DNA of 64,000 nucleotides from Vermamoeba vermiformis (Eukaryota), in NCBI GenBank assembly GCA_045837725.1, contig JBEWZL010000073.1:1-64000 (forward strand), written 5' to 3'. The notes beneath the pieces were generated by a model, which had not been told where the DNA came from, ran no database searches, and saw nothing but the letters and a program-made list of their open reading frames with translations. Numbering within the stretch: the stretch's first letter is position 1; every line of letters starts with the position of its first letter. Position numbers and translations under genes: made by a program. Below are positions 12,759-39,807 of the stretch, piece by piece.

Positions 12759-13934
12759 TTACGGATTGAGCTTCAAACGGCTCCTGAACGGATCGAAGAT
12801 GAATTCTGTAGCGCCCAATGCCTCAGCAGTATGGTGCAGGCCCAGTTCGTTGATGAGTGCCTTCTTCAGATTCAACACTGACTCAGAATCCAAGTTTGCA
12901 AGCAGTAGGCGACATCGCGCGAGTTCATCGTCGCCTGCCTTATGAACGATATTCCGTTGATTAATATAGAATTTCGAAGCCAGTTTGCGCCAGCTGTCGG
13001 GTTGTTTGACGAGATCTTGCGCTACTGCCTCGAGTTCTGATTGTGTTAGCGTACAAACTCGCAGTATTGTCGGTGTGATATCTTTCTTAATGGTTAGTTG
13101 TGGCTCATTAAGAAAGCAGGCTGCTATTTCGTCTTCAAAATTGATTAGTAACGGATGTACATAAATTGCTTCGGATCAAGACCGCGTACCTCGCTCAGAT
13201 CTTTTAACGATGGCGATGACTTCGTTCTGTTTGTCTAAGACCGGTGTTCCTGCTTCTACTGCCGAGCTTGCCTCGATCCCGAATATTGTCGAGCCTTTGC
13301 CCTCACGAACTTTTCCATCGATCCACTTGAGACCTTCTTTGTCATCTAAAGCCAGTAATTTAACTTCGTCGCCTTCCGAAACTTTGGCGTCGTAACGTAT
13401 GGGCATTGGAGCGTACTTGAGTGTTGCAGCTTCTAGCATCGGATCGGAGTTCAGGCGGAGCGTAGTGCAGTGGTATGCTGAGCAGAGGACGGTGGCGTGG
13501 AATACAGTGTTCGGATCGGACAAAAAGGAGAGCTCAGCGGTAGTGGCGTCCAAAGGAAAGGTAGACCGAACTGTGACCAGCAGATCTTCTTGAAAAAGAA
13601 AACCAAGACCGTAACTCGTGCCATTTATCGTTATATTTGCTATTCTCGAGCACTATGAATAAATAATTAAAATAAATAAATAATGCAAATGAATAAAATT
13701 GTATTTTAACGTACAAACGAAGATGCTTCTACTTCTTTACAAGGTAGCGCGCTACTTAATTAATTAATAAATATTTAATGGCTAATTATAATGCATTTTA
13801 AACCTGGAAAAGTAATAAGGTTCTGTTGCAAAGAATGCATTTTGGCGTGCTCTGCTCTTCTCAAGTAGCTGCTGTATCTTGAGTCTTTTTGGGCTTGGTT
13901 GTGCTAATTCTGGTTCATCAAGTAGGCGCTTCAT
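12759..13934 (-). CDS. Trypsin-like fold plus death-like domain, copy 2 (inverted paralog of 2867-4038)
   Basis: DATTAELSFL, RYDA..SEG..VKL.ALD.KEGLKWI, VAQDLVKQPDSWRKLA and the identical C-terminus DPFRSRLKLNP*. Both copies begin MKR. Confidence 0.7.
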
Positions 13935-14431
13935 GATTAGGTGTTGCATTTGTTCTTGCAAATAAAAATAATGAAACCGCTTTTTGGGTTAGTGGACTGA
14001 AGGGAATTAGTGAGACTGCAGCCACATCCAGATTGTGTTCTTCTTCAGAGAAGCTCTTCTCCATTTGTTTCAATCTCAAGAGAGTATCACAGTAATGCTG
14101 CTCCAACAGCTATCTTAGTCTGCTGTTCAGTCATGAGGAGAAAGTCTTCCTGATGTGGATGCCCAATGAGAACCTGTGACCATGTGAGGAAAAATATAAC
14201 TAGGCACTTCAGCCCATATGGTCCATCTGCTATTAGCATTTGAATTCTTCAGGCCTGCCCACTCCACAGTACAGGAGGAGAGGGAGGGGGGGGGGGGGGC
14301 CTAGCTCGCCCGAAATTACTGCATGCACCACAACTTATAACACTTATGTATTTACAGCAAGGAAGCACATGCTTTTATTTTATTCTTATGTCTTAGACAG
14401 TAACAATTCACAGTTCTTATTTGTAGCAGAC

Positions 14432-15330
14432 TTATGGTTCTGTAGCTTCAAAGAGTTGAGCCATTTGCTCAATTGTTGGATTTGTTTGGTTGTTTAAGAC
14501 TGTCTCTAACTGAATATTTAATTAGTAGTGTTCCATAAATCTTAATGATCTAGTACCATTCTTGCATAGTAAGGACTTTGAGGACCAATGTGCTTGACTT
14601 GACGCAGTATTCCATAAGCTAGAGTGCTAGCATGGCTTTCATATCTCTTGGCTCTGCCAAAATAAGCAAACAAGTTGACATAACATTGACAAGCTTCTTC
14701 ATTGAAGTCAGTCAGATAGAGCAGGTCTAATAGGTAGCCTAATGCTTCTTGAGCTACATCTCCTTCACTCCACAACACTGCTCTTTGAAGCATCTTGATG
14801 CAAGCATTACGTGAGGATGAAACTCTGAGACCAAGCAAGCCAATGTATTGTACTGCTGAGGAAGAGAGTCCATTGTGATCACATGCTTCAGGATGAGTGA
14901 TGTTCGCAAGCCTAGTAGCACACAATTCCAAGTCACAATTCTTCAGGGCAAAACTGAGAGCTTCAAGTTGGTGCTCTGTCTGCATCAAGTTGACAGCAGC
15001 ACCAGCATGCAATACAGCAAACAAGGCTTCTCTAATTGTGCCGTCTCCTTCTTTAGCCAATGTCTCTATTAAATGTTGAGGTAGATGTGGATGTAGAGTT
15101 GGAGGGAGATTTGAGTAAAGAGAAGCAGATAAAAAAAAAAAATTTTTTTGGGGATTTGTTTTTTTTAAAAAAGGTCACAGATTGCACCCCTGAATGAGTT
15201 AATAAATGACATTGACTACTTGTTTTGGCTTACAATGCAAAGGAGGCAGTAAGTCTGCCACTTGATCTGCTCTTGACTCATATGAATGCTCAAGGCAAAG
15301 AACTAAAGTTGCAAGCTTGGTTTGGTACAT
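14432..15330 (-). CDS. Unknown helical protein (possible frameshift at homopolymers ~15130-15170)
   Basis: Main exon is ORF 14542-15060, open up to ~15130, with plausible GT/AG-bounded first and last exons. No recognised domain. Confidence 0.45.
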
Positions 15331-15460
15331 GTAGTGTTTGTTAGGTAATGTGGAGTTAATTTCACTTGGACAGGACGAAAAAAAATTGTACCTAATATTT
15401 GTTATTAAATTAATTAGAATAAAAAGTGTATTTGTGGTAAAAAGCCAACATAAAAAAGAA

Positions 15461-15531
15461 TGCACTCACCGGGAATCGAACCCGGGTCGCCCGCGTGGCA
15501 GGCGGACATCATGCCCCTAGACCATGAGTGC
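15461..15531 (-). tRNA. tRNA-Gly(GCC), copy 1
   Basis: Acceptor GCACTCA/TGAGTGC, anticodon loop CT-GCC-AC, T arm GGTTCGATTCC, downstream T-run terminator. Confidence 0.95.
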
Positions 15532-15652
15532 CTTGTTGAAATTTTCAGATCAGAATCTAACGGGGTCTTTTGTAAAAAGTTGATACAAAGTTTACTAACA
15601 AGTAAATTGTTTGGGCAAAGAGAGGCAAACCATAAATTGCTATTCTAGTTGC

Positions 15653-17270
15653 TTAATTTGCTTGTTCTCCATGCTTAGCAGTGTACTCTTCATACTTGTC
15701 CAGCTCTTCCACAGGTACTGAGGGATGGACTTTGCCAAATGTTTGCAAAATGTCTGCCTAGTCAATTCTATTACTCAACAGTTACTTTCAATTGAATGCA
15801 TACTTTGTTCAGAGGTCTGATAAGCACTTTAAACATCTGATTATCAATGTCTAATAAAGACATCATCAATGCTCCTGCATCATTCTCTTTGCATGGAAGT
15901 AATACCCTTCAATGTTTTAATTATTCATTTTGTATAGCTTTTCAGAAAGTTATACCTTTTCCCAGAATACTGTCTTGAAGGAACTTCTCTGAAGTACTTG
16001 GACAGTACTAATTCTCTTACTGATAATCCAGTCAGAACAAGTGTACTTTGTGCTGAGCACTTACTAGGAGCTTGCAATGCTTCATGGCAGGCCAGTGATA
16101 TATCAGAGCCAGAGAAGCCTTCGGTCATGCATACTAATGTTTTAAGACTGTCTTCATCCAAGTCACATTTTTCAGCAAAATTGATCCTAACAATAGTATT
16201 AGATATGCATATGAATGTGTTATGTTGTGTCACATACTTCAGAAGTTCTCTTCTTCCTAGTTCATTTGGCAGTGGAATGTGAAGTTTCTTCTGGAATCTA
16301 CATGCAACTTTTTTTAATCATTTTGATGTTACGTCAATTGTTTACCTTCTAAGTACTGCCGGATCTAGATCCCAAGGTCTATTGGTGCAGGCTACAATTG
16401 TTGCTTCAAGGCAGGCTGTCCACATTAATACCATATTTTTCTGTAGTGTTTGGCTTACAGTCCATTTGAAGCAGAAATTCATTCTTAATTCTTCTAGTGT
16501 TCTCATCTTCATTATCTGTTCTTTTCATGAGCAAGCTGTCAATCTCATCCACAAATAAAATTGCATTTTTTTCTCTGGCTTGTTGAAATGTCTGCTTGAT
16601 CAACCTTTCACTGGCACCAAACCATTTGGATAGTAGATCAGCTGAAGTAACACTTAGCACTGGCAATTTGGCTTCTGCAGCAATGGCCTGGACCAACTTA
16701 GTTTTTCCAGTTCCTGGTGGCTGCAATGAAATTAGAATGGTTTGTAATGAATATTTGGCACTTACTCCATATAGCAGAATCTTGTTCCATGGCTTCAAGG
16801 TGGAGTACAAGTAGGGGAATTTTCTTGGAAGGATAATAGCTTCAAGTAAGATTTGCTTTGCTTTTTCCAGACCTGCAATATGCTTCAGCTGAAGAAGTTC
16901 TGGATTCACACTCGTAGCTTCTGCCTCTGTAACCTCCATTATGTCTTCATGTGCTTCATCTTCTTTGGGAAGTTGCTTTGGTGCAACGGATGTTGGCATG
17001 GGACTGCTCAAGTCTTGAATTCTAAGTTGGTAAGTTGAAATTAAAATAGCAATTGAGTGTTGAACAGAGTCTGAGCTGAAGAGATTTGCTTTTGAGAGTG
17101 AAGCAGCAGCTTTGCCAAACATTCCCACTGCATTTTGAAACTGGCCAGAATTGTCTAGTGCAAGGGCAGACTGAGCACTAAAAAGAACTTAGCATGTTAA
17201 ATAGGTATGGCTCTTACCATGAGATAGCCTCATTTAGATGTAGTAGCAAAATGCTGCTTTTATTTGACAT
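15653..17270 (-). CDS. Divergent VPS4-like AAA+ ATPase (MIT-like N-terminus, AAA, Vps4-type C-terminus)
   Basis: PWNKILLYGPPGTGKT (Walker A split by an intron), ILFVDEIDSL, RRIKNEFLLQMD, TEGFSGSDI, beta-domain-like LPCKENDAGA, and C-terminal 'PSVPVEELDKYEEY'. Confidence 0.85.
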
Positions 17271-17351
17271 TGTTTTCAAATGATTACACTAAAATCCAAA
17301 AAAAGTACAAAAAAAAAAATATAATATTTGGTTTTAACTCAAAAAAAAGAA

Positions 17352-17422
17352 TGCACTCACCGGGAATCGAACCCGGGTCGCCCGCGTGGCAGGCGGACAT
17401 CATGCCCCTAGACCATGAGTGC
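17352..17422 (-). tRNA. tRNA-Gly(GCC), copy 2
   Basis: Identical 71-nt body to copy 1. Confidence 0.95.
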
Positions 17423-17485
17423 CTTGTTGAAATTTTCAGATCAGAATCTAACGGGGTCTTTTGTAAAAAGTTGATACAAAGTTTA

Positions 17486-19841
17486 CTAACTAGTAAAAGG
17501 CTTGGGCAGTTGAGCTAAAGGGGCAACTGTAGGCCTGCCATGAGCACATGCAAAAGGGTTCTTACATTGCTTCAATTCATTCACCAAACTCATGCATTCT
17601 TCCCTTGAAAGTTTATCTCCAAACATTATTGCACCTATTTCAAAAGTTAATTTTAAGTTGATAATTTTGGATTTTTTAGCTCTTACCTCTACAAGCTTTG
17701 CTGGCTAAGACCCTAGAGACAGCTTTGGGTCTGGTAATCTTCAATCCTCCATTGCTTTCCAATTGCTCTGCATACTCCAACAAATCTTGAACTTCCAATG
17801 AAACTCCCAGCACTACACCCACTTGTGTTAAATGCAATGTGTACTCCCTATAATGGCCATATTAGTCATTTAATATTAATAATAATATATAATAATTAAT
17901 TGCCTACCCATTAGCACTATATAACTTATAGTCCCACATGTAACGGCCAATCAAGTTCTTGTACTGCTCCAGCCAAGTGAATTCATGCAATGCAATGGCT
18001 TGGTGAATATCAACTTGTCTAGTTTGGATATTAACTTCTTGCCCATTGATTCCATAGACCTGTTGTTGCAATCTTTCCAGCAATACTCTTTCGTGGGCAG
18101 CATGTTGATCGATTGCAAAAATGAGATAGTTCACCTTGGTAACTAACATGAATTAATACTGTTAAATGCTTGTAAGCTGCTTACTAATGAATTTGCAATC
18201 AACTTGGCCAATCACTTCCATGTTTTCCAATGTTTGTTTGTCAACTTTAAGTTCTGATTGCACAGTGACCGGTGTTTGAGGCAAAATAGAGGCCCTAGTT
18301 ACTGCAGAGTGCTTCTTCCAGCCCTATGTCAATAAGTAGATAAAAAAAATCACAACCTATTTCCAACGTACTTTGATTAATTGATCAACTTCAAGGGGCT
18401 TGCCAAGAACTTCTGATTTTTGAACTCTACTATTTCTTGCAGCAATTGTAGGAATTTCAATGTCTTCTTCATTATTTTCTGGCTTGGCATGAAATTGTAT
18501 TTCTTCTGGGAATACATCTTTCAAAAGCAATGCAACTGCCTCCCAATCTTTGATATCTACTTCAAAGTGGTTTTCAGAGGGAATAAAGTCCACTGTGAGA
18601 GGATGCAGCCATATATTCAAGATGTATCCTGGCTCCAATTTTTCTTTTCTGTGTTTTCTGAATTCATCTGCAATCAGTTTGCTCAGCTTCAAGCTCTTTA
18701 CAAATCTTCTATTGATGAATAGATATTGGTGCACCTAACAAGGTTAAGACATTGAAGTTATATGTTAATTACCTTTGAATTGAATCCTTTTCTGCCTATC
18801 ACTCCAGAAATTCTGGGCAAGTTGACCATGTCAAATTCTTCGTCTCCAATCATCTGTTTAAAAGCATTGCTCAAAGAATTCCTTCTAGGAATTTCCAATA
18901 CTTTGCTGTTCATATCCTTCAGAACAAATACCACGTCTGATGAAATGTTTAGTACTGATTTTTTTGTCGATATGTAGTACTTTGATGCATTAAAGATATT
19001 CTTTCCAATTTCTTTTTAATGCAAGCAATATCTCTTTGATTGCTAATGTTTGTAGTCCTGACTGGATAGTTTTTCAAGAAATTGAAAACCATCACAGTTG
19101 TTCCTAGCAACATTCAGATTAACATTAAAGACTCATTCCTTTACTTACCATTGAGGGCTGTGCATGGTTGAATTAATGTAGCTGCACCATTCTTCAGTTT
19201 AACATTAGTTATTTACATAATCCTAATTATCATTACCTCTAGAACTTTAAAGTAAGATTGACTGCTTTGATGGTGCCTAGAACGAATTTCAATCCTGCTG
19301 ATTAGAGAAAGGCAGGCTGGTTTCATTAGTTCAATTATTGTAAGAATTTGATAATTACCTAGAAATTGTCCATGATAGCCATAAGTCGTTAGGGAATTCA
19401 AATCATTTTCTGAAGTGAGTTTGGAGGTGACTTCAGGCAAAAAATAAGTCCATGTTAATAGGAATGGGACTCACCATATGAATTTCCCAGCTCCTTGATA
19501 TCTTCATAGCAAATGCCAGCTCCATTATCTAACTCTTATTATTATCAGTTTTTTTATTTAACTTACTTACCCTTGACTTCAAAATACAGCTGCTCTGGAT
19601 TTGCTCTTATTCTGGGTTATTATGATTTTTAAAATTCAAAGCTTACATTACTTGAATCATAGTAGCACCGGCATCAAGACCTAAATATATCCAGTTAAAT
19701 TTCTATTATAATGCCTTTTGAATTATAATTGAAAAGGGTTAACTTACTGTTGAAAACTAGTTCTTCAATTGCCTGGGGAATTGAGGATAAGTGATAGCTA
19801 GCATGAACTTGGCTAGCAAGTTGATGAGATAGAGGCTTCAT
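17486..19841 (-). CDS. MLH3: MutL-gamma endonuclease subunit MLH3
   Basis: GHKL N-terminus (AIEELVFNSLDAGA, TYGYHGQFL), endonuclease motif DQHAAHERVLLE, KACRGAIMFGD and PFACAHGRPT. Confidence 0.9.
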
Positions 19842-19903
19842 TTTCTTTTTAGAAAAATAAAAAAATAAAACAATTAAAAACATTTTTTTTGCCAAACACA
19901 ACA
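19842..19903. promoter_or_regulatory. 62-bp head-to-head intergenic, putative bidirectional promoter (MLH3 / orphan)
   Basis: Divergent ATGs at 19841 (-) and 19904 (+) separated by AT-rich DNA. Confidence 0.5.
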
Positions 19904-21344
19904 ATGACCAACCCAGCGTCAAAGATTGCTAGGTTCAAAAGAAAGCTAGAAGGTGCTGAAGAAAAACCAAGCAAGAAGCAAAAAGTAGAAGATAAGAAGG
20001 AGAAGACTCAGTCAAAAGAAATTTCAGAAACTAAAAAGAAGACTGCCAACAATAAGAAAGTCATTACACTGGAAGAAGACACTACAAATAAGCTGAATTT
20101 TGTATTGCCAGAAGATGATGACTTTGTGGAGCCAGTCAAGCCAGCTCCCAAAAATTCCAAGGCCAATCTTCCAAAGCCAGTCAGAACTTACTCCAGATCT
20201 GAACGAGCTAAGAGCAGAAAGAGGCCTGAAGATGAAGAGAAGGAGAGATTGCAGGTGTTGAGCAAATTCAAGAAGAATGCAGCGCCTACCAGCCAGGCCC
20301 AGACTCCTCTCCAGACTCAAACTGCTGAAACTACTGATGGTGTTGAAAAATTTACAACTGAGGTTCCAAAGCTATTAACAGTAAGTCTCCATATTTAATA
20401 TCCCTGGAAAAATAATTTTAATAATTATGTTAGGATGAGAAGCCAGTGACTTCCAAGGCAAAACCTTCTCCCTCCAACAAAGGAATTTTTGCGAATGCTA
20501 AGTACTCAAAATTAATTCAAAAGAAGGGCTCAGTCAAAGGTACTTCATATAATAGCAATTTAAATACAACTTGTTTGGCTGATTTTGGATCTGCAGATCC
20601 TGGTCACAAGGAAGAAAACTTCATTGACTCAACAGAGCAATACAATCCTTACAACTTGGCAACTACTGCTCCTAATAACAACAACTTGGAGAAAGAGATG
20701 AAGACTGATTCAGTTGAAGAAAAGCCTGCAGATGAGAAAAAACAGCCCAAGAAAATCAAATCAAAACAGACTTTGGAATGTAAGTTTACCAATGTTGAAT
20801 TTATATTTTTTGAGCTGATAGTTGCATCAGATGTTCGTAAAACACGCTCTGAGTTGCAGGAGAAGATGGCAGGCTCCCAAACTAAATTGTAAGTGCATCA
20901 TCATTAAAATTAATTCTAAGTAATAATTCCAGGAAAAAAGACATTATGAGATTGATCAATGCCATTAATCCAAATATTTTGTCTGAGTCAGCTGAAGTTG
21001 AACTAAGAGCCACTCAATCATGTGTTGAAGCTTCAAGCAGAGTGTTGCAGGTAAAATTTTTCTTAAAATCTACAGAATCCTGATGTTGTTCACAGTCGCT
21101 TAGCATCCTCACTGATTCTTTGGCCATGGCTCAACCAATTGACATTCCATCAGATCATGACATGTTCCATGGCTCAGTGTTTGCTTACAGCCAGGCTCTA
21201 GCTCCCATCCAGTCCAGATCTGCTCCCAATCTACCCTTCAATGAAAGTTGGTCTAATCAGTTTTTGCCCATGGACTCAATCCAGCTTGAGACTCCCAAAA
21301 AAGATGATGATGAAGTGTTTGATCCTTCTGTTTTCTTTAACTAA
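19904..21344 (+). CDS. Lys/Glu-rich orphan protein, probably nuclear
   Basis: Consecutive spliced ORFs 19889-20398, 20446-20892 and 21120-21344, with NLS-like KRK and PSKKQK. Confidence 0.7.
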
Positions 21345-21470
21345 GCAGTGTCCAAAGAGACTCTGACAACATAGAAATAAACCTGCTACTCTATTTCATT
21401 TCAATACAACATTATTAGACATTGGGTTTAACTTTGCAAAAAAAATTGGATAAATCAAAATAAAAAAGAA

Positions 21471-21541
21471 TGCACTCACCGGGAATCGAACCCGGGTCGC
21501 CCGCGTGGCAGGCGGACATCATGCCCCTAGACCATGAGTGC
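21471..21541 (-). tRNA. tRNA-Gly(GCC), copy 3
   Basis: Identical body; the upstream flank is slightly diverged. Confidence 0.95.
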
Positions 21542-21635
21542 CTTGTTGAAATTTGCAGAGCAGAATCTAATGGGGTCTTTTGTAAAAAGTTGGTACAAAG
21601 TTTACTAACATAATAATAAAATGGTGATTCTATGC

Positions 21636-21717
21636 TTGGGCAAAGAAGGGCAAATCCTCAATCATTCATTGCTATTCTTGTTTGCTTGTTCTCCATGCTT
21701 AGCAGTGTTCTCTTCAT
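21636..21717 (-). pseudogene. Duplicated fragment of the VPS4-like 3' end
   Basis: tttgcttgttctccatgcttagcagtgttctcttcat matches 15657-15693 with one mismatch; the similarity extends back toward the tRNA flank. Confidence 0.75.
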
Positions 21718-21791
21718 GCTTCCACTGAGGTGATGTTGAAGTTTTATTTGGGAATTACAACGATACAACATGCAAGTTGCAACGGTAGGTT

Positions 21792-24484: not shown

Positions 24485-24551
24485 TTTCTGGCAGTTGTTG
24501 TAATGTGACCAAAAAAATTATTAAATAAGTTATAAGAAAATGTTTTTTACA

Positions 24552-29198: not shown

Positions 29199-30342
29199 TT
29201 ATTTTTGTTTAATAAATTCAAAAATTACCAAAATATTTTGGGCCAAAAATTCTTCCCAAAAAGCAAAATTCTCCATGATTTTCAACTCGTGCAGGAATTG
29301 GAGGTAGTTGTCCTTGTTTAAACTCTTCAACACTGAACTGCCAGTTATTGTAACATGAATATTAAAATTAAGGTTTAACTTACATAAGGATTGAGCCAAA
29401 GTTTTAACTTCAGAGTTTTTATCGTGGACACCCTTCTTGATAATTGCAATGAGACTTTTAGTGGGCAGACTATTGAATTCCATCAGTTTCCAAGCACAAA
29501 GTCGAACTTCTTCAGAAACATCTTGAGACATATCCACCAGAAGTTGAAATATGATATCTATTTAATTAGTAAGAATGAATGATCGAAGAATCATACCAGG
29601 TGCAGCAAAATTTGATAAAGCTTCCAGTGCCAATACTTGAGTTTTTCTGTAGGGTAAATTAATAATAGATTAATTTTGAACCGATATATGAGATACACAC
29701 ATGTTGGAGGAATCCCTGGCCAACTTGATCAAAATTTCTTCTAAATCCGCCTTCTCATCTAATTCAATTTCATTGTCTTTCAACCCTACAGTGTATATCA
29801 GCATTCCTTAACATAAGGCTTACATACATTTCAGGCACTGTTTCTGAACAGCATATGATCCATCCTTTTTCAGTAGAGAAGTCACAAGCTCGGCGCAATC
29901 AGAAGTTGTGAATTTCAAATACAATCCCAGAATTATTTGCCTGCCTGAAAATATCATCTATTAGATCGTCACCTACAATGGGCTTATGAACCTTTGGGGC
30001 TAATGGCACCATTGAACACAATCCCAGATACACATTGTTGCAAAACAGATTCAGGAAAGATCTCCAGCAATGAATTCAAACTTTTTCCCATTTTTTTTGA
30101 AGCCAGAGTTAAAAGAAGAGAATTGCACATTGAAACAAGCATGTTCTAAATCTAGTTAATAAAACACATTTATGTGGAATTGTTACCTGGTAAGCCTCCG
30201 GAAGAGTAATAACCAATTCTTTAATCTCATGGTAGAACTTGAGATATTTTGGCTTTTGAATAATATTGAGTACATCTGCTAGCTCTTCTTTCTTGGGAGC
30301 ACTCTGAGCCAGCTCCAAAATTTTTTGTCGCACTTCTTCCAT
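29199..30342 (-). CDS. Short HEAT-repeat protein resembling the N-terminal third of condensin CAP-G
   Basis: YAVQKQCL..., KLARDSSN..QVLALEALSNFAAP, DVSEEVRLCAWKLM...IIKKGVHDKNSEVK and DNYLQFLHEL follow the order of CAP-G N-terminal HEAT motifs as recalled from memory. Confidence 0.55.
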
Positions 30343-30418
30343 TTAAAACAAATAATTCAAAAATTCAAAAATTGGACATTTTTCATTTTTGGTAAAAAGA
30401 TTAATCACAACAACAAAA
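30343..30418. promoter_or_regulatory. 76-bp divergent intergenic at the strand switch of the island
   Basis: ATGs at 30342 (-) and 30419 (+). Genes to the left are mostly minus and genes to the right mostly plus. Confidence 0.5.
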
Positions 30419-30842
30419 ATGGCATCTGATATGGAAATTGAGCAGCATCCCCAAGTAGATGAAACATTGATAGTGTTCCAAGGCAAGGCAGAAAACTTGC
30501 TTCAAAAAAGGCAGAAGTTTATTGATGGTAAGTTTAAGCACCTTAACAAATCCACCCAGACTTCTGATCCTTTGAAAGACCTTTCCTCTAATTTGGAGAA
30601 GATATTCCATGGCTACTTGGAAACCTTTGCCTCCAATTTCCAAACCAGATCTGATCAACTCTCCCATTTGCTATCTGCTTACAATGAGGAAGCTGTGTAA
30701 GTTAAAATTCGAATGAAGCCCCAAAGCAATGCTAAATAGATATAATAGGAAATGTGACATGTTAAAGGCCAATCTGCAAGCTGTCCAAGAAAAGACAGAA
30801 GACCTCTACACTGAGCTGCACAGGGCTCTCTCTGCTCAATAG
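30419..30842 (+). CDS. Small coiled-coil protein, candidate SYCE2-like
   Basis: Two exons: MASDMEIE...YNEEAV|KCDMLKANLQAVQEKTEDLYTELHRALSAQ*. The gene is secure; the family call is tentative. Confidence 0.5.
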
Positions 30843-30930
30843 CTCGTTTAATATTGCTGGATTTTTATCCACAATTTATTTTGTAGAAAAAATTGTTAAT
30901 TTTTCTCAATCATTATTTTAATTGTAATAA

Positions 30931-31553
30931 ATGAACATGGAAAAACAAATCAGTTCTCTGCAACGACAGCTTTTTGAGAAAGATCTTCTCATCCAAAACC
31001 TTAGGAATCAACTCCAGCAGCTGCAAGAATTTAAAAATCAGGTCAGCATTGCATTGCAGAGGTTACCTCAAGAAGATGGCCCGGCAACAATTCAAACTTG
31101 TCATGAAGCAATTGAACCAACCCCAGCAGTGGAATGCGGAATCTGCTTACTAGAAGTTCAAGGTATGGAAGTCTTTTTTTCAAAACACAAGTACCTAACA
31201 CATAGATAATAGAGGATGACATTATGTTTGCCTTAGATTGCAAGCATGAATTTCATCTTGGTTGTTTATTCAAGTGTCTGGGTATGCTCAAACATGTCAA
31301 TCAAAACAATACGAAAATTAATCCCTCTACAGAAAGCAGGTTCATAGTCAATCAATGTCCTTTGTGCACCTCAAGAATAACTCCCGAAATATGCAGAGAA
31401 ATTTCAAGCCAGTAAGTAAATTGCATATTAAATGGTAAAAAACACATTTTAACTTCATTAAATAGGTGGAAAGAGATACTCAATGAAGAAAAAAAGCTAT
31501 CTAAAATCTTGTTGGAAGAATTGAAGAGTGAAAATTCGTCTGATTTGTGTTAA
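30931..31553 (+). CDS. Coiled-coil plus RING-H2 E3 ligase-like protein
   Basis: CGIC...CKHEFHLGC...CPLC across exons, preceded by a Q/L-rich coiled coil. Confidence 0.8.
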
Positions 31554-32517: not shown

Positions 32518-33831
32518 ATGATGGAGCACGATATTGAGGATGTAGAAAGTGTTTCAGGGTCCCAAAGCTCATCATCAGGTTCCTACAAAGATGAGTATGG
32601 TGAATTGTTTGAGCTTGATGAGCCTATGTCTTTAAGTGCATACATGAAGGCTTGGTGAGTACACAAATAATAATTATAATTTAATTTTAATTTACTTATT
32701 TAATTAATTATTATTATTTAATTATAATAATTCTAATAATTATTAGGAATTTCTTTTCTTAATTTAGTTAATAGTAACTCCATACCCTTTAATAAAATAT
32801 GTAATAATTTAATAATTATTTATTAGTTATTCAATTGATGTTCCTCAAGATTCAGAAATTTTCTGCAAATTGCAGCAGTACCAAGTTGTACAAGCTTGTG
32901 ATGGACATGCTAATCTTTTTGGAGTAAAAACCAATCAAAAACGATATTTTGCAAAGTATGCCTCAAAAGAACAGTATGAGGCAGAGAAACGAAGTCATGA
33001 AGTGTTGGATCCGCTCAATTGTCCTTCCATTATCAAACTGGTGGATGCAATTCCAATAGGTGCAGGAGGCATTATTATAACACCTATGTATGATCGATAC
33101 AGCCATGGTACATTTTACTATCATCCCAAAAGAGTCATGACATGCTTGTTGCAGGTAAATCTGGATTAGATTTGGCTCAAAATCTTCTGACTGTAACCCT
33201 TGTAGGCTCTTAAAGTCTGCCATGATAATGGTATAGCACACAGAGATATCAAGCCACATAATATTGTTTGGTACTTTGCTGATAGGCGGTGCAGAACCCT
33301 TGATTTCTTTCTCACTGACTTTGGCATTGCCTGCTTTGATTTTAAAGAATATGAAAATAAGACTATACAGAACATGCCTGGCACATTAAGATATTATTCC
33401 CCAGAGAGGCTGCGGGGAGAAATTCCACCTGATCCACGTGTATGTGACATGTTTGCTGCTGGAGTAGTTTTCCTTGAATGCGTAAGTCATTATTAGAAAA
33501 ATGAACTCAAAACAAGCTCATTTATTCAATACAGGTGATGCAAACAAGCAAACATGCCTTTAAAAATGGCACATTGGACGAAATTTATCATGTGCTGAAC
33601 AACTTTGATGAAGTAGTAGGTTGTCTATTGTTGCCCCATGCAGCTGATTTATTGAAGAAGATGCTGGAAGTTGATTACAAGAAAAGAATTACTGTCACTG
33701 AGGCATTGGAACACAGATTCTTTAGTGAGCCCCACTGCACTCGCATTGAATACTCCAGAGCACACCCCACTAGAATGCCAGACTATTTGATTTTCACTCC
33801 AGCCTTTCTGATTGAACATAACCTTAAATAA
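32518..33831 (+). CDS. Divergent Ser/Thr protein kinase
   Basis: FAK...E, HRDIKPHN, TDFG, GTLRYYSPE, DMFAAG and KRITVTEALEHRFF. Confidence 0.88.
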
Positions 33832-33871: not shown

Positions 33872-33957
33872 AGAAAGCGGGTTCAAGTCAATCAATGTAC
33901 ATTGTGCATCTCAAAATTAACTCCAGACATTTGAAGAGAAATTTCAACCCAGTAAGT
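33872..33957 (+). pseudogene. Decayed duplicate of the third RING exon
   Basis: Aligns with 31331-31417, including the donor gtaagt, but carries an indel and substitutions. Confidence 0.75.
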
Positions 33958-34030
33958 GATCCTTAAAAATAATTTTAAAAACATTTTAATTATTTTTAAA
34001 TATTTTGTTCTTATTTGAACAACTCTGAAA

Positions 34031-37000
34031 ATGACCACAGAACCACGATTCAATTCAGAGCTTGATATCCAGTTAGAAGGGGGCCGTACTGCAACTCAGA
34101 ACAGAACCTCTACAACTGCCAATGAGGCCATTTATATTATAGCCCTGAATGAAAACAGAGCTAAAGAGGTATACTTGTTATTAACGATATTCTGCCTTAC
34201 ATATATTTCAGGTTGGATTTGCTGCTATCAATCTGAAAAATCCCGTAGTACACCTCAACCAGTACTGTGACAGCCATGCATACATTAATACGCTGACTTC
34301 CTTGGTAATTTACCAACCTGTTGAGGTAAGTCTAAAAATTCTAGCTACTGTAGCCCTCATCTCAAATTATTTTTAGATTATTCTGCCAAACACTGCTGAA
34401 AATACAGAACTTTATCATACAATTAAGGCTCAGTTCCCCAATGTCTCTATTGTTACAGTGGCAAGAAAGTACTTTTCTGAAACAACAGGTATATTAAAAC
34501 ATCATGTAATTTCCTGGGTTAATTTAATATTTTAAGGGTCTCTTCTTATGCAACGACTGTCTCTGAAAGATAATGTGATTGATTCAGCCCTGTCCCTTAA
34601 GTATCTGGCTTTGGGATCCTTCTCAGCATTGATAAAATATGTTGAGTTTGTGCAACATTCAACCTTTGCCTCTCACACTCTTAAGGCAAGTTTACATTGG
34701 AATCATAATTAACAATTAACACTATATTTTTAGATTATTCTTAGAGGCTGTGAAGGCATCATGTTTATTGATGCCAATTCAATCAGAGACTTGGAAGTGC
34801 TATTTAACAAACGTACTGGCAAATCAGAGGAGTCTTTATTTGGAATATTGAACCACACTAAGACAGTGCAAGGAGGTATGTTATTCCTTTATTATTGCTC
34901 TTTGTAGTGTATTAATTATCCACAGCTCGTCTTCTTAAAACCAACTTGCTGCAGCCCCTCACTGACTTGACCACAATAAGAGTCAGACAACAATGTGTTT
35001 CTGAACTGTTGAACAATGAATCAATGTTCTTTGGATTAAGCAAAGCATTGGAAAAGTTCATTGATTTGGACCACTTAAGTGAGTAGACTTTATTATTCTA
35101 TAATGAAAAATACTAATTAGTTGCAGTTTCTCAGCTTGTTTTCATTCCAAAGAAAAGTTCTGAGAAGACAGCTCAAAATGCCATTCAAAGCGCCATTGTC
35201 TTGAAGTACAATTTAGAGCTGGTGCCTGGCCTAGTTCAAAGCATTCAAGACAGCCAGCATGAATTGTTTGGAACTATTCTCAAAAACCTGCAACATGAAG
35301 ACATCAAAGAGATGTACGACAAAATTACTGAAGTCATAGATGACTCTGCTACTCATGAGAAGGGTGCTCAGAAACAAGCAATGCAGGTACACAGGCTGAA
35401 AAAAAAATGATTTTCAATTTTTCTGAGAAATATTGTTTTGCAGCACTCATTTGCAGTGAAGCCAGGCATCAATGGTCTATTGGATGCAGCACGACAAGTC
35501 TACACTGAAACTATTGAAGATATTTATGCCCTGGCCAACAGCTACAGAGACCAACATAATTTGATGAGCCTTAAAGTGCAATACAACACTAAACGAGGAT
35601 ATTTCTTCACTGTGCCTGGCTCTGTCAAACACATTCCTGCCTTATTTGGGCATGCTTCAATGCAAGGCAAGAAGTGGATTCTATCTACAGACCAGCTGGA
35701 AACTCTCAACATTAGGAGCAAAGAATCGCTGCAAGACATTTACTTGATGACTGAACGAGTCATTGAGGGATTGATGGCTGAGATTAGGTACATGACAAGG
35801 TTGTAGTTTTCATTCACTAATTGATGATTAGAAAGAGACTTTCCACCATTTACAAAATCTCCGAGTCAGTTGCATTTTTGGATATGATATCAAGGTAAAT
35901 CAAATCCACAGTGACTTTTTCAATTAATTCTATACTAACTTCAATCACTATATAGTCTGGCCACCTATGTTACTCTGAGCGATGCATGTGGTAAGTGAAT
36001 ATTACTTATACTATTTTCTAATATTAAACTTTATCAAGTGGTTCCTGAGTTTACAGAGGATGGACCATTGGCTATTAGACATGGAGTAAGTTCTAAAATA
36101 ACTGTAGCTATTGTTATTAAAATAGTATTCAGCGCCATCCTATCCTTGAAAAGTTAGGCATTGATGTTATTCCCAATGACACATATGCTTCTGACCTAGG
36201 CCAAACATTTCATGTGATCACTGGTCCAAATATGAGTGGCAAATCAACTTATTTGAGCCAGCTTTGTTTGCTCACCATAATGGCTCACATTGGTAAGAAA
36301 ATAACACATAACATTACAGATACTAATTTATACTTTAGGAGCACATGTTCCAGCTCGTTATGCATCGTTTAGAATATTCAGAAGCATATTTACAAGTGAG
36401 TGCTCACATATTCATGCATTATTAAACTAACAGTGGAATTATAGGAATAGGAACGGAGGACTCTATTGAAGCAAACTCCAGCAGTTTTATGAAGGAGATG
36501 AAAGACATTGCATTTGTTATAAAAACTGCTTCTCATAAGAGTTTGATTGTGATTGGTAAGTCAATCAGCTTTTCTCCTCGTTTTTACTTACAACATCATT
36601 TGTTAGATGAACTAGGCAGAAGCACTTCGAACAAAGATGCCCTGCCAATCTGTTATTCTATCAGTGAGTACTTGATCTCATTGAAAGCCTACACCTTCTT
36701 TGTGACTCACTACCATGAATTGGCAACAAATCTGGCCCAGCTTTACGCTAAGGTCAAGACTCAGCATTTCTCTGTAAGTAACGTGCAATGTGCAAGAATT
36801 AATAATCTACTGCAATGTAACAAATAGGTTGATAAGAGAGAATCCAAAATCAAGTTTTTGTATCAGCTTGAAGATGGAGTTTGCAATGAAAATCTGTATG
36901 GTCTTGCCATTGCTGAGACTGCTGGATTTCCAAAGGCTCTGTTGGAGAAGGCTCACAAAGTCGCCATTGAGCTGGCTAATCAACAAAAGAAGAAAGAAGT

Positions 37001-37154
37001 GCAGAACACAACTGGTGCCAAAGCTAAGCAAGCCATCATTGAGAGGTTGTTGCTGCTGCAGAACTCCACACTGGATGAAGTTAGTCTTAAAGCCTATGTT
37101 GCCGATTTGAAGAAAAAGTTAGCAGACTGCATTGCTTGTGAAGCAGAAGAGTAA
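34031..37154 (+). CDS. MSH4: MutS-gamma subunit MSH4
   Basis: IIALNENRAKEVGFAAINLK, SLFGILNHTKT, FAVKPGINGLLDAARQ, ITGPNMSGKSTYL, SSFMKEMKD, DELGRST and FVTHY. Confidence 0.95.
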
Positions 37155-37474
37155 ATAATGTGTAGCTTTAATAAACTCCCATCTTACATTCTTAAGCTAG
37201 CCCAAGGCTGAATTCTTTAGAATCTCTAACCTTAAGATAAAGAAATATCCTAGCTATTGAACTCTAATTTTAGATAGGATACTATACTATGAAAGATGTT
37301 TGGCTTTGGATTAATAGAATTAACTAAGATGGATAAGGATCATCTCAAACAAGAGAATATAATATCTGAGTAAATGTATTACCATTAAACTTCATACAAT
37401 TTGCTACTTAGTAAACTTTGTATCAACTTTTTACAAAAGACCCCGTTAGATTCTGATCACAAAATTTCAACAAG

Positions 37475-37545
37475 GCACTCATGGTCTAGGGGCATGATGT
37501 CCGCCTGCCACGCGGGCGACCCGGGTTCGATTCCCGGTGAGTGCA
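37475..37545 (+). tRNA. tRNA-Gly(GCC), copy 4
   Basis: Identical body on the plus strand, followed by TTCTTTTTTT. Confidence 0.95.
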
Positions 37546-37666
37546 TTCTTTTTTTGGGGGTTTTCATTTTATTGTAATTTATTTTCAATTTTTTTCTTCC
37601 TGTTTATTGAAATTAACCACATTACCTAACAACACTAAAGCCAAAAGTAGTTCATCATTAATACTT

Positions 37667-37810
37667 TATCTAAATTCAGCTTCCCAAATAAGACATGCAG
37701 CTCCAAATCCCATCAACTGTAGCATTAAATTAACCTCACCTTATGAAAGAAAACTTACAATCAGTTGGTCAGTGTTGTCCCAGAGAATGTTTGAAGGAGC
37801 CACATTGCAA
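37667..37810 (-). pseudogene. Duplicated fragment of the adjacent kinase-like gene
   Basis: NVAPSNILWDNTDQLI|intron|LMGFGAA mirrors DVAPSNILWNKEDELI|LVGFGAS at ~38230-38345, then stops. Confidence 0.65.
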
Positions 37811-37920
37811 AATTAATTTTATTCATTTTTGGGAAAACAAAATAGCACTTGAACGCTTAGTCAGAAGTATAACCACAGTGCAAAACACAATCATCACCTT
37901 AAACTCATTGGAATTGAATT

Positions 37921-39807
37921 CTACCTGAAGGAACTTGCCATCAACCACTCAAGTTTCTTCTTCACTTTATCAAGAGAAACCCTTTCAAAAGGCCTTTGTT
38001 TTGTCTAGTAAAATACATTACTAATAGGATGAAAAAAGCAGCTTGGTTACCATAGCTTCAATCAGCACAAGTAAGTCTACAGATAATTGCCCCCAATGCA
38101 AGGCAAAATATTCAATTACTTTGCCTGCACTGTACACATCTGATGCAATAGTAGGGTTATATTCTGGAGGTGAGAAGGGCTCATCTCCTGGAAGCAAATT
38201 GACCCCAGGATGGTGATTAATGAGGCCTGATGCACCAAATCCAACCAACTGAATAAACATTAGCAATAATCAATAGAATAGTTGAAAAACTTACAATAAG
38301 TTCATCCTCCTTATTCCACAGAATGTTTGAAGGAGCCACATCACCATGACGGAGCCCTAATGAATGCATAGTTTGAATAGCAGAGATCAACTGCAGAGCT
38401 GTAGATATGATGTCTTTCTTCTGTGGCTCCTTGTTGTATACAGGCCAAGCCATAGCCACTGCTGCTCTATTCATAACAGACATTGAGTCTGCATACAGAA
38501 ACATTGTGAAGTCAAGCAACAATGGGAAGTGAGGCTTGCCATTCAGCAACTGGGCAATGAAGAACTCAAACCAGAGGAGCATGGGACCCAATGATTTCCA
38601 AGGCTCCTGCATCTCTCCACCCACCAACAGCTTGCCAAACACTGGCTGTCCTTCAAAGTCACCATAGCCAATGAACTTTGATGGTGAAGATGCAGCCCAA
38701 ACTAGGTTGTGGGCCTTACAAAATGACACTGGCAAATCCATTGCAGGCTTGCCAAGTAAATGCTCATGTACATAGCAATCTAAATGGTAGCCCAATTCAG
38801 CATCTCGGTGGCAGCTCAGAAGTGCACTAATAACTTGTGAAAATGCTGCAGGCACAAGTGTTTGTGATTACCTGAAGTCAAAACACAAAACAGGAGCTTC
38901 AATGCAAACAGCAGAGGGATCTTTTAAATACATAAATGCTGTCTTAGCTGAGACTCTCATGCCAGGGTCCTTATTGCACTAGAGAAGCATTAGAATCAGA
39001 GTTGAAAGTGGATTTTAAGTTAGTACCAAGACATCAATGAGCTTGTCAACAACAGGATCAGCTCCACAGAGTTTAGACCATTCCTTCAAGACCAATCCTG
39101 CACACAGCATATCATGGGCTGGCTCATACATTTCTTTGTGGGGCCATGACCCCCACATGGGCAAATCTCCGTGAAATCGGCAGGCACTCCAGTCAACAAG
39201 CTGATTGATATGTTACTTATGTTTAATAAACGAAGGACTTACTTTAATTTGATCACGCTTGCCAATGAATATTTGGCGCTCTTAGAGACCCATGCATTAC
39301 TCCTGCCTCATGAAACCCAGCTAATGCTCTGAAAAGCTGCGAAGCCAACTCAAGAATTGGCATGTTGGGTGGCAGCTTGCGTGAGTAGTGTCTGACTTGG
39401 TAAATCCATGTTGAGTCATAGGTAGGGCGATAGCCAAGAATTTCAGTGACCCCAAAGCATCCATACATTTCCAGCAGAAAGAACATTTCCTTAGATCGCC
39501 TATCTATTAATTTCATAATTAATGTAGTCTCAAAGCTAATGTTTTTAGTGCTTGGAATTTCATGCACATTAAACTCACCTGAACGGAATATGGCACGGTC
39601 TTGATCTGCTTTGCCCATACAATCACTTGAGTGGTAAGGAAGCTCTGCAACATCTTCTTCTTTTAATTCTGGCATTTTGAATTGTGCGTACGCTCCTTCT
39701 TTAAAAGCTTGATCTAAGTAGTAGTGAGCAAGGCCCTCAACTTTGCCATAGAACTTTGCAGACGACGGAAGGTACGAAAATAATAATCCTTTCGCTCGTG
39801 AATTCAT
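37921..39807 (-). CDS. Tandem two-domain kinase-like (likely pseudokinase) protein
   Basis: Domain 1 has MHGSLRAPN and VDWS; domain 2 has RHGDVAPSN and VGFG. They join in frame through a 45-nt intron near 38825-38870. Confidence 0.7.

Follow-up and report, generated by a model that had tools for sequence, protein, structure and literature searches.

Methylated bulk DNA of vertebrates has a CpG o/e of about 0.2 and sharp borders to unmethylated, CpG-rich DNA at gene 5′ ends, CpG has decayed in the methylated fraction of the Ciona genome, and the RIP of fungi acts on duplicated DNA and raises TpA. To our knowledge, S. pombe has no DNA methylation. Facultative heterochromatin islands lie at meiotic genes of fission yeast, according to the part of PMC4536793 used here. 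In other protists, repressive 5mC over silent genes is documented, again in the parts of the reports that we draw on (PMC12344493; PMC11244446): CpG methylation represses silent genes and repeats in Acanthamoeba castellanii and Cyanophora, and Amoebidium appalachense carries hypermethylated islands. CpG deserts with sharp edges are not described in those parts of PMC12344493 or PMC11244446.

Here we analyse a 64-kb stretch of the Vermamoeba vermiformis genome (positions 1–64,000 of contig JBEWZL010000073.1, ‘the window’), in which a block of ~26 kb with very sharp edges lacks about 85% of its CG dinucleotides. The analysis establishes the CpG-specific loss, its extent and edges, its same-genome origin and the presence of intact host genes. 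Judging from the sequence, we think it probable that this is a positionally stable, blanket CpG-methylated block that has decayed by 5mC deamination and that is probably repressive.

Extent and edges of the CpG-depleted block

The edges were placed by maximum-likelihood change points on CpG counts, all within the one 64-kb window: the left change point lies at 13,750 (support 13,748–13,795) and the right one at 39,686 (support 39,562–39,765). The block holds 212 CpG in 25,936 bp (8.2/kb) and the flanks 1,941 in 37,055 bp (52.4/kb); at the flank rate 1,359 CpG would be expected in the block as compared to the 212 observed, a difference whose Poisson probability is too small for numerical representation. 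Per kb, there are 2–12 CpG throughout 14,001–39,000 (25 kb) and 31–79 in each kb of 1,001–13,000 (12 kb), in the one that begins at 13,001 and across 40,001–64,000 (24 kb). In 500-bp windows, CpG o/e is 0.23 inside the block (maximum 0.50, n = 50) and 1.15 outside (minimum 0.70, n = 73), and the two distributions do not overlap (Mann-Whitney U = 0, p = 6e-21, 50 vs 73 windows). The sharp depletion domain proposed in a preliminary description of this DNA is thus borne out by sliding-window CpG o/e (≤0.50 in all windows inside, ≥0.70 in all outside), and its spot counts are exact: 0 CpG and 21 GpC at 38,401–38,700 (GC 0.470), 23 CpG and 20 GpC at 42,601–42,900 (GC 0.467).

The same description had the depletion fading inside genes at both ends. 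On the right this holds: CpG density is intermediate over the initial ~600 bp of the minus-strand gene that starts at 39,807, and the 3′ part of this gene is almost CpG-free; on either side of this graded edge the density is 0/kb (38,900–39,100) and 51/kb (39,700–40,400). On the left, the change point falls ~100 bp upstream of the end of the long ORF (13,652), and it lies inside the gene model 12,759–13,934 only if the model’s extra 5′ exon is real.

The window holds a second CpG-poor stretch (1 to about 1,010), absent from the preliminary description, which continues past the window’s left end.

Specificity of the loss

While CG o/e is 0.22 inside the block vs 1.14 outside, GpC o/e is 1.28 vs 1.27. 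Every one of the 16 NCGN contexts is depleted, 15 to 0.06–0.25 of flank density; CCGG stands at 0.61 of flank density, with 8 of its 14 block copies sitting in the four tRNA genes. Background base composition is the same inside and outside at sites unable to be CpG: positions with CpG-excluding neighbours have A/C/G/T of.275/.221/.220/.284 inside and.287/.216/.219/.279 outside. In codon third positions in non-CpG contexts, C is 0.24 inside vs 0.36 outside; gene by gene, the block values (0.22–0.29) lie within the flank-gene spread (0.21–0.41). With GpC and non-CpG composition unchanged, the loss is indeed CpG-specific. GC content is 0.376 inside vs 0.429 outside, a deficit of 5.3 points that matches CpG decay, as conversion of the ~1,115 missing CpG to TpG/CpA would explain 4.4 of the 5.3 points.

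The depletion reaches exons, introns and intergenic DNA alike, as had been claimed: codons, introns, spacers and promoters are all CpG-poor. NCG codons make up 1–3% of their codon families in 19 block ORFs vs 21–32% in 16 flank ORFs, and CpG per 1,000 codons at positions 1–2, 2–3 and 3–1 are 8.8, 5.0 and 10.0 inside vs 41, 72 and 71 outside. The loss extends to the amino-acid level: the CGN share of Arg codons is 29% in the block vs 75% in the flanks, and that of Arg among all codons 3.0% vs 5.5%. The 300-bp windows at five putative 5′ ends within the block contain 0, 1, 1, 2 and 4 CpG; those at the two edge promoters contain 13 and 12.

TG+CA amounts to 155.3/kb inside vs 136.5/kb outside, a surplus that accounts for about 490 of about 1,150 missing CpG. 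The TpG/CpA excess expected from 5mC deamination is only weakly positive after the arithmetic effect of CpG loss is removed: the CA share of C-not-G steps is 0.430 inside vs 0.418 outside, and TG, conditioned likewise, is 0.430 vs 0.424. The same picture would arise from an old equilibrium brought about by selection, and the smallness of this specific surplus favours a cause other than methylation, be it counter-selection of CpG or a different mutational process acting on the region. We nevertheless regard such a cause as quite unlikely: introns, spacers and the three codon junctions are all affected to the same degree, the lowered Arg content is a cost with no benefit, and GpC and non-CpG composition are untouched. 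Moreover, no mechanism is known to us by which a eukaryote would select against CpG throughout a mixed 26-kb sequence and stop so sharply at its edges.

Genes, same-genome origin and residual CpG

The block carries intact genes for the crossover proteins MSH4 (MSH4-like), MSH5 and an MLH3-like protein (Table 1). The MSH5 gene is collinear with a 786-aa homologue and its introns are canonical GT..AG; its extension to 29,050 is suggested by an N-terminal-like ORF. No PMS or MLH1 structure matched the MutL-family gene below E 0.1, the nearest solved structures to the AAA ATPase are VCP-like, Vps4 and fidgetin-like 1, and a Pfam search with the all-helical ORF returned no match. No Pfam viral or transposon family matched among the 48 block ORFs scanned, no TE-like repeats were found in the block, and a search that detects close relatives only gave no viral relative for the acidic Ser/Thr/Pro-rich ORFs and no viral-contig relatives for three large ORFs (two from the flanks, one from the block). 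That the block contains intact, spliced host genes rather than transposons is therefore upheld.

Table 1. Features of the window. Strand is given where it applies.
Feature	Position	Strand	Remarks
Second CpG-poor stretch	1–1010		7 CpG in first kb; edge 1,010 (support 475–1,067)
CpG-rich flank gene, 5′ end adjoining left edge	12759–13652	-	paralogue of 3,065–4,038(+)
CpG-depleted block	13750–39686		change points and per-kb profile; CpG o/e about 0.22
All-helical ORF, exon of left-most block gene	14542–15174	-	AlphaFold2 model pLDDT 57
tRNA-Gly(GCC) copy 1	15461–15531	-	keeps 7 CpG
AAA ATPase gene	15925–17188	-	AAA and AAA_lid_3 domains
tRNA-Gly(GCC) copy 2	17352–17422	-	
MutL-family gene, MLH3-like	17489–19928	-	DNA_mis_repair and MutL_C domains; nuclease motif DQHAAHERVLLE
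Lys-rich ORFs, no family assigned	19853–20892	+	head-to-head with MutL gene
tRNA-Gly(GCC) copy 3	21471–21541	-	single CpG of upstream unit is CA here
Large acidic Ser/Thr/Pro-rich ORFs, no family assigned	21998–25884	-	
MSH5, intact	26095–29050	-	collinear with P0062 residues 89–779; 51–54-nt GT..AG introns
HEAT-like gene, no family assigned	29199–30342	-	weak HEAT match, E 0.005
Coiled-coil protein, C-terminal RING-like finger	30356–31412	+	weak zf-RING matches, E about 0.007
Protein kinase gene	32816–33831	+	Pkinase, E 6.5e-16
MSH4-like second MutS homologue	34019–37154	+	MutS_IV and MutS_V domains; collinear with P0180 residues 6–656
tRNA-Gly(GCC) copy 4	37475–37545	+	inverted relative to other three
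Kinase-like gene over right edge	37921–39807	-	limits from earlier gene model and start codon
Graded right edge	39100–39700		21.7 CpG/kb; over first ~600 bp of minus-strand kinase-like gene
3′ part of PIP5K-family (Fab1-like) gene, CpG-rich right flank	39834–40965	-	

Read-depth evidence covers 5,001–25,000, that is, the left edge. X1 DNA word depth is 258–680 in 28 of the 30 bins, the other two holding tRNA copies, and one X1 contig (13,018–13,925) spans the left change point; depth is thus even. The independent water metagenome X3 contains pieces from both sides of the left edge at a depth of 2.4–3.8; in these pieces, 18 of 1,316 flank bases and 16 of 1,670 block bases differ. Even depth at the left edge and the equal depth of both parts in X3 argue against contamination. 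An assembly chimera or contamination joining two organisms would account for the compositional step itself, and no X3 contig bridges the left edge among the matches listed; given the evenness of X1 depth outside the tRNA bins, the X1 contig across the edge, the same low depth of both sides in X3 and a right-edge gradient within a single ORF-bearing gene, we consider a join of this kind scarcely credible.

Within 13,900–39,300, 205 CpG remain, and away from the right edge they form clusters only at the four tRNA-Gly genes, with 7 CpG each; a fifth cluster (3 CpG, 39,231–39,277) lies inside the graded right edge. Copy 1 belongs to a repeat unit of ~160 nt, in which ~65 nt upstream of the gene are conserved, and block DNA is single-copy except for these 160-nt tRNA units. 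Inverted copies of the unit lie 1.7 and 2.2 kb inward of the two block ends, an arrangement that, like the sharp edges, is compatible with foreign or introgressed DNA keeping its donor’s composition (inserted by a virus, transferred horizontally or derived from a relative poor in CpG); hypermethylated islands of Amoebidium are viral or TE insertions, as described in the part of PMC11244446 used here. We hold a foreign origin to be very unlikely, as non-CpG composition is identical to that of the flanks, the genes are core eukaryotic ones with short canonical introns, the viral and transposon searches above were negative within their scope, depth equals that of the flanks, an independent environmental strain has the block at similar divergence, and the transition on the right is gradual, taking up 600 bp within a gene. 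The earlier view that the block is no paste-in of foreign DNA therefore stands: it belongs to the same genome as its flanks.

Probable long-term regional methylation and known systems

If long-term regional methylation is the cause, this part of the organism’s own chromosome would have carried CpG methylation from end to end, also in promoters and spacers, in the lineage of dividing cells, and both flanks would have stayed unmethylated throughout the same very long period. Spontaneous deamination of 5-methylcytosine would have turned CpG into TpG or CpA down to a low equilibrium (o/e about 0.2), with clusters persisting only where CpG is under strong purifying selection, namely in the four tRNA genes. 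Both edges lie at gene 5′ ends, and the left one is sharp to within roughly 50–100 bp, which suggests a methylation boundary that has not moved over evolutionary time. What we infer is the methylation as such, together with its repressive nature and its age.

Two RNA-seq runs yield no reads on block genes over 13.75–25 kb, where only poly-A-type artefacts and tRNA bins are covered, and cover the flank at 8.3–12.3 kb with a spliced junction; the strain behind these runs differs by ~5% (11 fixed differences in 11,453–11,686), their maximum depth is 17, and several bins of the flank are likewise empty. The lack of CpG-retaining promoters, together with that of RNA reads over ~10 kb of the block, is suggestive of a heterochromatic state.

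Gene-body (mosaic) methylation of expressed conserved genes, of the Ciona or invertebrate type, would produce the same CpG decay, and tight gene packing could make it look continuous. Many genes of the block are old and conserved (MutS, MutL, AAA ATPase, kinase), and mosaic genomes, in which some domains are methylated and others are not, have been well described (PMC3827831, in the part used here). In Ciona, however, methylation drops at the ends of genes and immediately upstream of the TSS (same part of PMC3827831), while five putative 5′ ends in the block have 0–4 CpG per 300 bp as compared to 12–13 at the edge promoters; the block interior has no CpG cluster besides the tRNA genes, the CpG-rich flank has conserved genes too (PIP5K/Fab1-like, RhoGEF-PH), and the missing RNA reads point, weakly, the same way. 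This makes gene-body methylation unlikely in our view. Repressive methylation of genes silent in growing cells would fit the blanket pattern better, and also fits the content of the block: the meiosis-specific MSH5, the MSH4-like gene and the MLH3-like MutL gene.

The block resembles vertebrate bulk DNA set against CpG islands in its o/e of about 0.2, its sharp 5′-end borders and its loss of Arg and NCG codons. Vertebrate CpG islands are ~1 kb, though, whereas here gene bodies and spacers amounting to at least 37 kb are CpG-rich, and the host, by its best protein matches, is a unicellular non-animal eukaryote. As in Ciona intestinalis, methylated and unmethylated domains would be tens of kb long; those of Ciona are stable between cell types, centre on single transcription units, dip upstream of the TSS and mark stably expressed genes (PMC3827831, in the part used here), whereas promoters in the block are as CpG-poor as gene bodies. 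A C-to-T hypermutation confined to one region, if deamination is the cause, recalls RIP, but the block is single-copy except for its tRNA units, its TpA o/e is lower inside (0.67 vs 0.77) and its genes are intact. The heterochromatin islands of fission yeast are small and dispersed and are not known to leave a CpG footprint, while the block is one cluster of MutS-gamma and MutL genes; what the two would share is the packaging of meiosis genes into repressive chromatin during vegetative growth (for fission yeast, PMC4536793, in part). Like the islands of other protists, as the parts of PMC12344493 and PMC11244446 used here describe them, the putatively methylated block is regional, takes in whole genes with their promoters, leaves other genes unmethylated and would be tied to transcriptional silence; its methylation is read from sequence decay, and while those islands are reported mainly as transposons, giant-virus genes or other laterally acquired genes, the Vermamoeba block holds conserved, intron-bearing core genes.

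Extent and composition of the CpG-depleted block

Counted per kb, CpG is scarce throughout the 25 kb from 14,001 to 39,000 (2–12 CpG in each), with 31–79 CpG in every other kb of the window except the first, which holds 7. Two-rate likelihood change points fall at 13,750 (support 13,748–13,795) and 39,686 (support 39,562–39,765), and the block between them contains 212 CpGs against 1,359 predicted from the rate in the CpG-rich flanks, which excludes chance and establishes as real the regional depletion that a preliminary description, made from the sequence alone, had placed at 13,900–39,300 (a stretch with 205 CpGs). Its two spot counts are likewise correct: there is no CpG in 38,401–38,700 (GC content 0.470, 21 GpC) and there are 23 in 42,601–42,900 (GC content 0.467, 20 GpC). 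The observed/expected (o/e) CpG frequency in 500-bp windows is bimodal, with a mean of 0.23 and a maximum of 0.50 inside the block (n=50), a mean of 1.15 and a minimum of 0.70 outside it (n=73), and no window between 0.5 and 0.7. A third change point at about 1,010 marks a second CpG-poor stretch at the start of the window, 1–1,010, which continues past its left end.

On the left, the change point falls in AT-rich spacer DNA about 100 bp upstream of the start of a CpG-rich gene, 12,759–13,652(−), and on the right the edge is at the 5′ end of a kinase-like gene whose start codon is at 39,807; both edges are therefore at gene 5′ ends. The start codon and promoter of the kinase-like gene, adjoining the 3′ end of a PIP5K-like gene, are CpG-rich; over ~600 bp from its start the gene has an intermediate density, and beyond that it is almost CpG-free. 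The right edge is preceded by an intermediate zone at 39,100–39,700 (21.7 CpG per kb, between 0 and 51). Away from this graded edge, the remaining CpGs form clusters only in the four tRNA-Gly(GCC) genes (7 CpG each), a fifth cluster (3 CpG) being found within the graded edge at 39,231–39,277. Elsewhere they are scattered over genes and spacers alike, with a mean spacing of ~140 bp. Within ±150 bp of five putative 5′ ends in the block, as placed from ORFs rather than transcripts, there are 0, 1, 1, 2 and 4 CpGs, compared with 13 and 12 at the starts of the two edge genes, and so none of these five ORF-based starts has a CpG-retaining dip at its putative promoter.

The loss is specific to CpG. 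While CG o/e is 0.22 inside versus 1.14 outside, GC o/e is 1.28 versus 1.27. All 16 NCGN contexts are reduced, 15 of them to 0.06–0.25 of their flank density; the apparent exception, CCGG (0.61 of flank density), has 8 of its 14 copies within the four tRNA genes. At sites unable to be CpG, base composition inside and outside is equal (A.275/.287, C.221/.216, G.220/.219, T.284/.279), and block and flanks therefore have one compositional background and differ at CpG only. GC content is 0.376 inside versus 0.429 outside, a deficit of which about four fifths would follow if the ~1,115 missing CpGs had become TpG/CpA. A codon-level comparison yields 5–14-fold CpG depletion at all three codon junctions of the block, and this, together with the scatter of residual CpGs, bears out the earlier statement that the depletion spans coding and non-coding DNA, as a mutational process would produce rather than selection at the level of codons. 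Codon bias as a proxy for expression is uninformative, since the block genes fall within the spread of the flank genes.

Codon-level comparison of 19 block ORFs with 16 flank ORFs
Measure	Block	Flank
CpG at codon positions 1-2, per 1,000 codons	8.8	41
CpG at codon positions 2-3, per 1,000 codons	5.0	72
CpG at codon positions 3-1, per 1,000 codons	10.0	71
NCG share within codon family	1-3%	21-32%
CGN share among Arg codons	29%	75%
Arg share of all codons	3.0%	5.5%

The excess of TpG and CpA, proposed earlier as a check on deamination, is clear by one measure and small by another. Conventional o/e values are raised inside the block (CA 1.34 versus 1.10, TG 1.30 versus 1.13), and TG+CA together are 18.8 per kb more frequent inside than outside; however, CC, GG, CT and AG rise by similar ratios, a parallel rise which is largely the arithmetic result of removing CG. 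Once conditioned, the shares barely move: CA makes up 0.430 of C-not-G steps inside versus 0.418 outside, and TG 0.430 of not-C-G steps versus 0.424, and the TG+CA surplus accounts for only ~43% of the missing CpGs. We read the small conditioned surplus as that of a block which is probably old and near compositional equilibrium, in which case the direction of change cannot be read from composition alone. The only inside/outside pair of paralogues, an ORF in the CpG-poor stretch at the window start and a CpG-normal ORF beyond it, is at 26% identity too distant to give that direction, and of 27 listed strain differences in the flank, to which this comparison is confined, 9 involve CpG in one strain. 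RIP, which acts on a duplicated target and leaves a TpA excess and a CpA deficit, was ruled out: TpA is lower inside (TA o/e 0.67 versus 0.77), CA is raised, and the genes are intact in DNA that is single-copy. A composition at equilibrium would also fit a selective purge of CpG, a less likely alternative that would need to have hit introns, spacers and codons to the same degree, with the loss of arginine codons as its price.

Gene content of the block and its flanks

Features of the block and flanks, mapped in the block by scanning single ORFs with Pfam, placing homologues and searching the PDB (gene models from ORFs and homology)
Feature	Position	Strand	Remarks
ORF in CpG-poor stretch at window start	426-824	(-)	distant paralogue of the next entry
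CpG-normal ORF	2,183-2,689	(-)
Left-flank paralogue	3,065-4,038	(+)	CpG-rich
Left-flank paralogue at left edge	12,759-13,652	(-)	CpG-rich
Helical ORF, unknown family	14,542-15,174	(-)	210 aa; AlphaFold2 pLDDT 57
tRNA-Gly	15,461		unit 15,449-15,617
AAA ATPase	15,925-17,188	(-)	nearest structures VCP-like, Vps4, fidgetin-like 1
tRNA-Gly	17,352		unit 17,340-17,508
MutL-family gene	17,489-19,928	(-)	Pfam
Lys-rich ORFs	19,853-20,892	(+)
tRNA-Gly	21,471		unit 21,459-21,627
Large acidic ORFs	21,998-25,884	(-)
MSH5	26,095 to about 29,050	(-)
HEAT-like gene	29,199-30,342	(-)
Coiled-coil and RING-like gene	30,356-31,412	(+)
Protein kinase	32,816-33,831	(+)
Second MutS gene (MSH4-like)	about 34,019-37,154	(+)
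tRNA-Gly	37,475		unit 37,393-37,554
Kinase-like gene across right edge	37,921-39,807	(-)
PIP5K-family gene (Fab1/PIKfyve-like)	39,834-46,000	(-)	large; CpG-rich right flank

The MSH5 gene is collinear with residues 89–779 of P0062, a 786-aa homologue. Every in-frame stop falls within a 51–54-nt insert bounded by GT..AG, the Walker motifs are intact and the product carries MutS_III, IV and V (Pfam); on its sequence, MSH5 is an intact, spliced gene. Most of the 120 matches listed bear no functional name; at least 18 are called MSH5 or 'mismatch repair protein 5', and one MutS homolog 3. Matches to the ATPase exon are 62–75% identical. The best named protein matches are from amoebozoans, early-diverging fungi and a EukProt entry with the label Opistho-2, at 38–47% identity; they point to a non-animal protist and include no close annotated relative. 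Metagenome contigs were searched for related DNA in which conservation of the CpG desert could be judged: the AAA ORF had no match in these contigs, and the MSH5 exon matched 19 loci (48–59% identity, CpG o/e 0.5–1.3), all of them uninterrupted prokaryote-type MutS genes and hence irrelevant.

The second MutS gene is collinear with residues 6–656 of P0180. A protein search gave two homologues, P0180 and P0181, both unnamed and both carrying MutS_III, IV and V only. In Atlas, P0181, the better of the two, lies nearest to the cluster 'mutS protein homolog 4' (score 0.98), an MSH5 cluster scoring 0.96, and Atlas describes the gene's own 131-aa exon only as 'hypothetical protein / MutS_IV'. The best PDB chains are bacterial MutS, MSH3 and MSH2, from a database that holds no MSH4. 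We provisionally call the gene MSH4-like, an assignment from sequence that is not proven. The MutL gene encodes DNA_mis_repair and MutL_C domains and the motif DQHAAHERVLLE, which conforms to DQHA(X)2E(X)4E and shares 9 of 12 residues with the MLH3 motif of mouse as it appears in an excerpt of PMC8053082. Among PDB chains, no PMS or MLH1 chain matched this gene below E 0.1. It is, again provisionally and short of proof, designated MLH3-like.

These three genes lie within 20 kb of each other. Elsewhere, MSH4 and MSH5 form MutS-gamma and MLH3 is part of MutL-gamma, which act in class I meiotic crossovers. It is very unlikely that three such genes would be so close by chance in a genome of thousands of genes, and their proximity points to a class I crossover machinery that is co-regulated or co-inherited. 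Among the titles and abstract openings listed by our literature search, none describes an MSH4/MSH5 gene cluster, which leaves its absence in print unproven.

The window's four tRNA genes, every one of them inside the block, are all tRNA-Gly(GCC). Each belongs to a unit of ~160 nt (91–97% alike) in which ~65 nt upstream of the tRNA are conserved; the copies yield a single CG>CA difference, too few to count. The right-most unit is inverted relative to the other three, so that the outermost copies form an inverted pair around ~22 kb, sitting 1.7 and 2.2 kb inside the block edges. Separately, 31,355–31,549, which overlaps the C-terminal exon of the plus-strand RING-like gene, and 33,895–34,095 are 40% identical in one minus-strand frame; judging by this similarity, the RING-like exon may have a degenerate duplicate in the latter stretch, immediately upstream of the MSH4-like gene.

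In the flanks we found RhoGEF-PH, PIP5K/Fab1-like and GT34 glycosyltransferase genes, along with several long ORFs without a Pfam match; conserved genes are therefore present in both compartments. The 3′ end of the PIP5K-family gene is at most ~100 bp from the start codon of the kinase-like gene that spans the right edge. The two left-flank paralogues are an inverted pair with 52–60% protein and 72–78% DNA identity; the one adjoining the left edge has a weak match to trypsin-like peptidase (E 0.009).

Read comparison and origin of the block

We compared reads over 5,001–25,000, and hence over the left edge. In X1, a DNA run with the same organism label, word depth is 258–680 in 28 of the 30 bins across this range, the two higher bins containing tRNA copies, and an X1 contig, 13,018–13,925, spans the left change point; X1 may be the source of the assembly, and so not independent of it. 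In X3, an independent water metagenome, four of the pieces listed are in the flank and four in the block, with depth 2.4–3.8 in both and similar divergence (18 differences over 1,316 flank bases versus 16 over 1,670 block bases); among the X3 contigs listed, none bridges the left edge. Just inside this edge, at 13,959–14,414, an alternative X1 contig (depth 331) differs by numerous small indels and substitutions, in a way that looks like allelic variation in indel-rich non-coding DNA.

Could the block be of foreign origin? None of the 48 block ORFs scanned, all of at least 60 aa, matched a transposon or viral family in Pfam, and its only repeats are the four ~160-nt tRNA units. The many 51–54-nt introns of MSH5 are contrary to what would be expected of a few-intron viral or transposable-element insertion. 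A search of viral contigs, which finds close relatives only, returned none for three large ORFs (two from the flank, one from the block). The earlier view that the depleted domain contains intact host genes rather than transposons is thus upheld by a spliced, intact MSH5 and the lack of transposon or viral families among the 48 ORFs scanned. A foreign origin is unlikely because non-CpG composition is identical on both sides, the introns are of host type, depth is equal and the block is present in an independent strain.

Expression was assessed with two RNA-seq runs bearing the same organism label. Within 11,453–11,686, the RNA has 11 fixed differences from the window (~5%), shared with a minor X3 variant, and therefore comes from a strain other than the window's. 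The reads, at depths of up to 17, cover 8.3–12.3 kb of the flank, where one GT..AG intron (10,468 to 10,585) is confirmed; 8,300–12,340 is the only clearly expressed region in the two runs. Over the 11 kb of block compared there were only poly-A-type partial matches and signal in the bins that hold tRNA genes. As several flank bins also lack reads, this absence is a weak sign that the block genes are silent. The A-rich tracts at 17,298–17,324 and 19,853–19,880 attract hundreds of partially matching poly-A RNA reads and false 'joints', a mapping artefact rather than transcription.

Probable methylation of the block and comparison with known systems

The most economical reading of these sequence features is that the block has carried blanket CpG methylation, kept in a dividing lineage for a very long time, and that deamination of 5mC would then have eroded CpG to an equilibrium o/e of ~0.2. 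The preliminary description had already proposed long-term 5mC deamination, an interpretation that is borne out in part: its sequence side is solid, and the epigenetic side we infer. If methylation is confirmed, a boundary fixed within ~100 bp would have persisted long enough to erase ~85% of CpGs, and the DNA alone would attest directly to very long-term epigenetic stability in a unicellular eukaryote. It would also place repressive 5mC on core host genes rather than on parasites, which would bear on the ancestral role of eukaryotic DNA methylation as that question is raised in excerpts of PMC12344493 and PMC12695648.

Gene-body methylation of the invertebrate type can be set apart from this reading. 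There, according to extracts of PMC3827831, methylated domains dip upstream of the TSS, unlike the block, whose five putative 5′ ends show no such CpG retention. On our reading, the block would more nearly resemble the repressive methylation that silent genes carry in Amoebidium, Acanthamoeba and Cyanophora (PMC11244446, PMC12344493 and PMC12695648, each as excerpted), although the islands in those organisms consist, in the same excerpts, mainly of transposons and viral or laterally acquired genes, whereas the block consists of core host genes.

One further proposal, which we consider unlikely, is that the block is an epigenetically gated 'crossover island', a 26-kb unit shut by heritable CpG methylation during vegetative growth. 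Such an island would gather MutS-gamma (MSH4 and MSH5) and an MLH3-type MutL-gamma subunit, would take in a kinase, an AAA ATPase and a RING protein as well, and would be opened as a unit for the sexual cycle; its boundaries would be held at the flanking promoters, perhaps aided by the inverted tRNA-Gly units that lie near each end. If true, meiotic recombination genes would here form a functional cluster of a kind rare in eukaryotes, and the block would be a case of DNA-methylation control of meiosis genes outside animals. A parallel would be fission yeast, in which, as excerpts of PMC4536793 describe, meiotic genes are held in small heterochromatin islands during growth; by this analogy the block might, at rather long odds, be a DNA-methylation version of the same arrangement, applied to a physical cluster.
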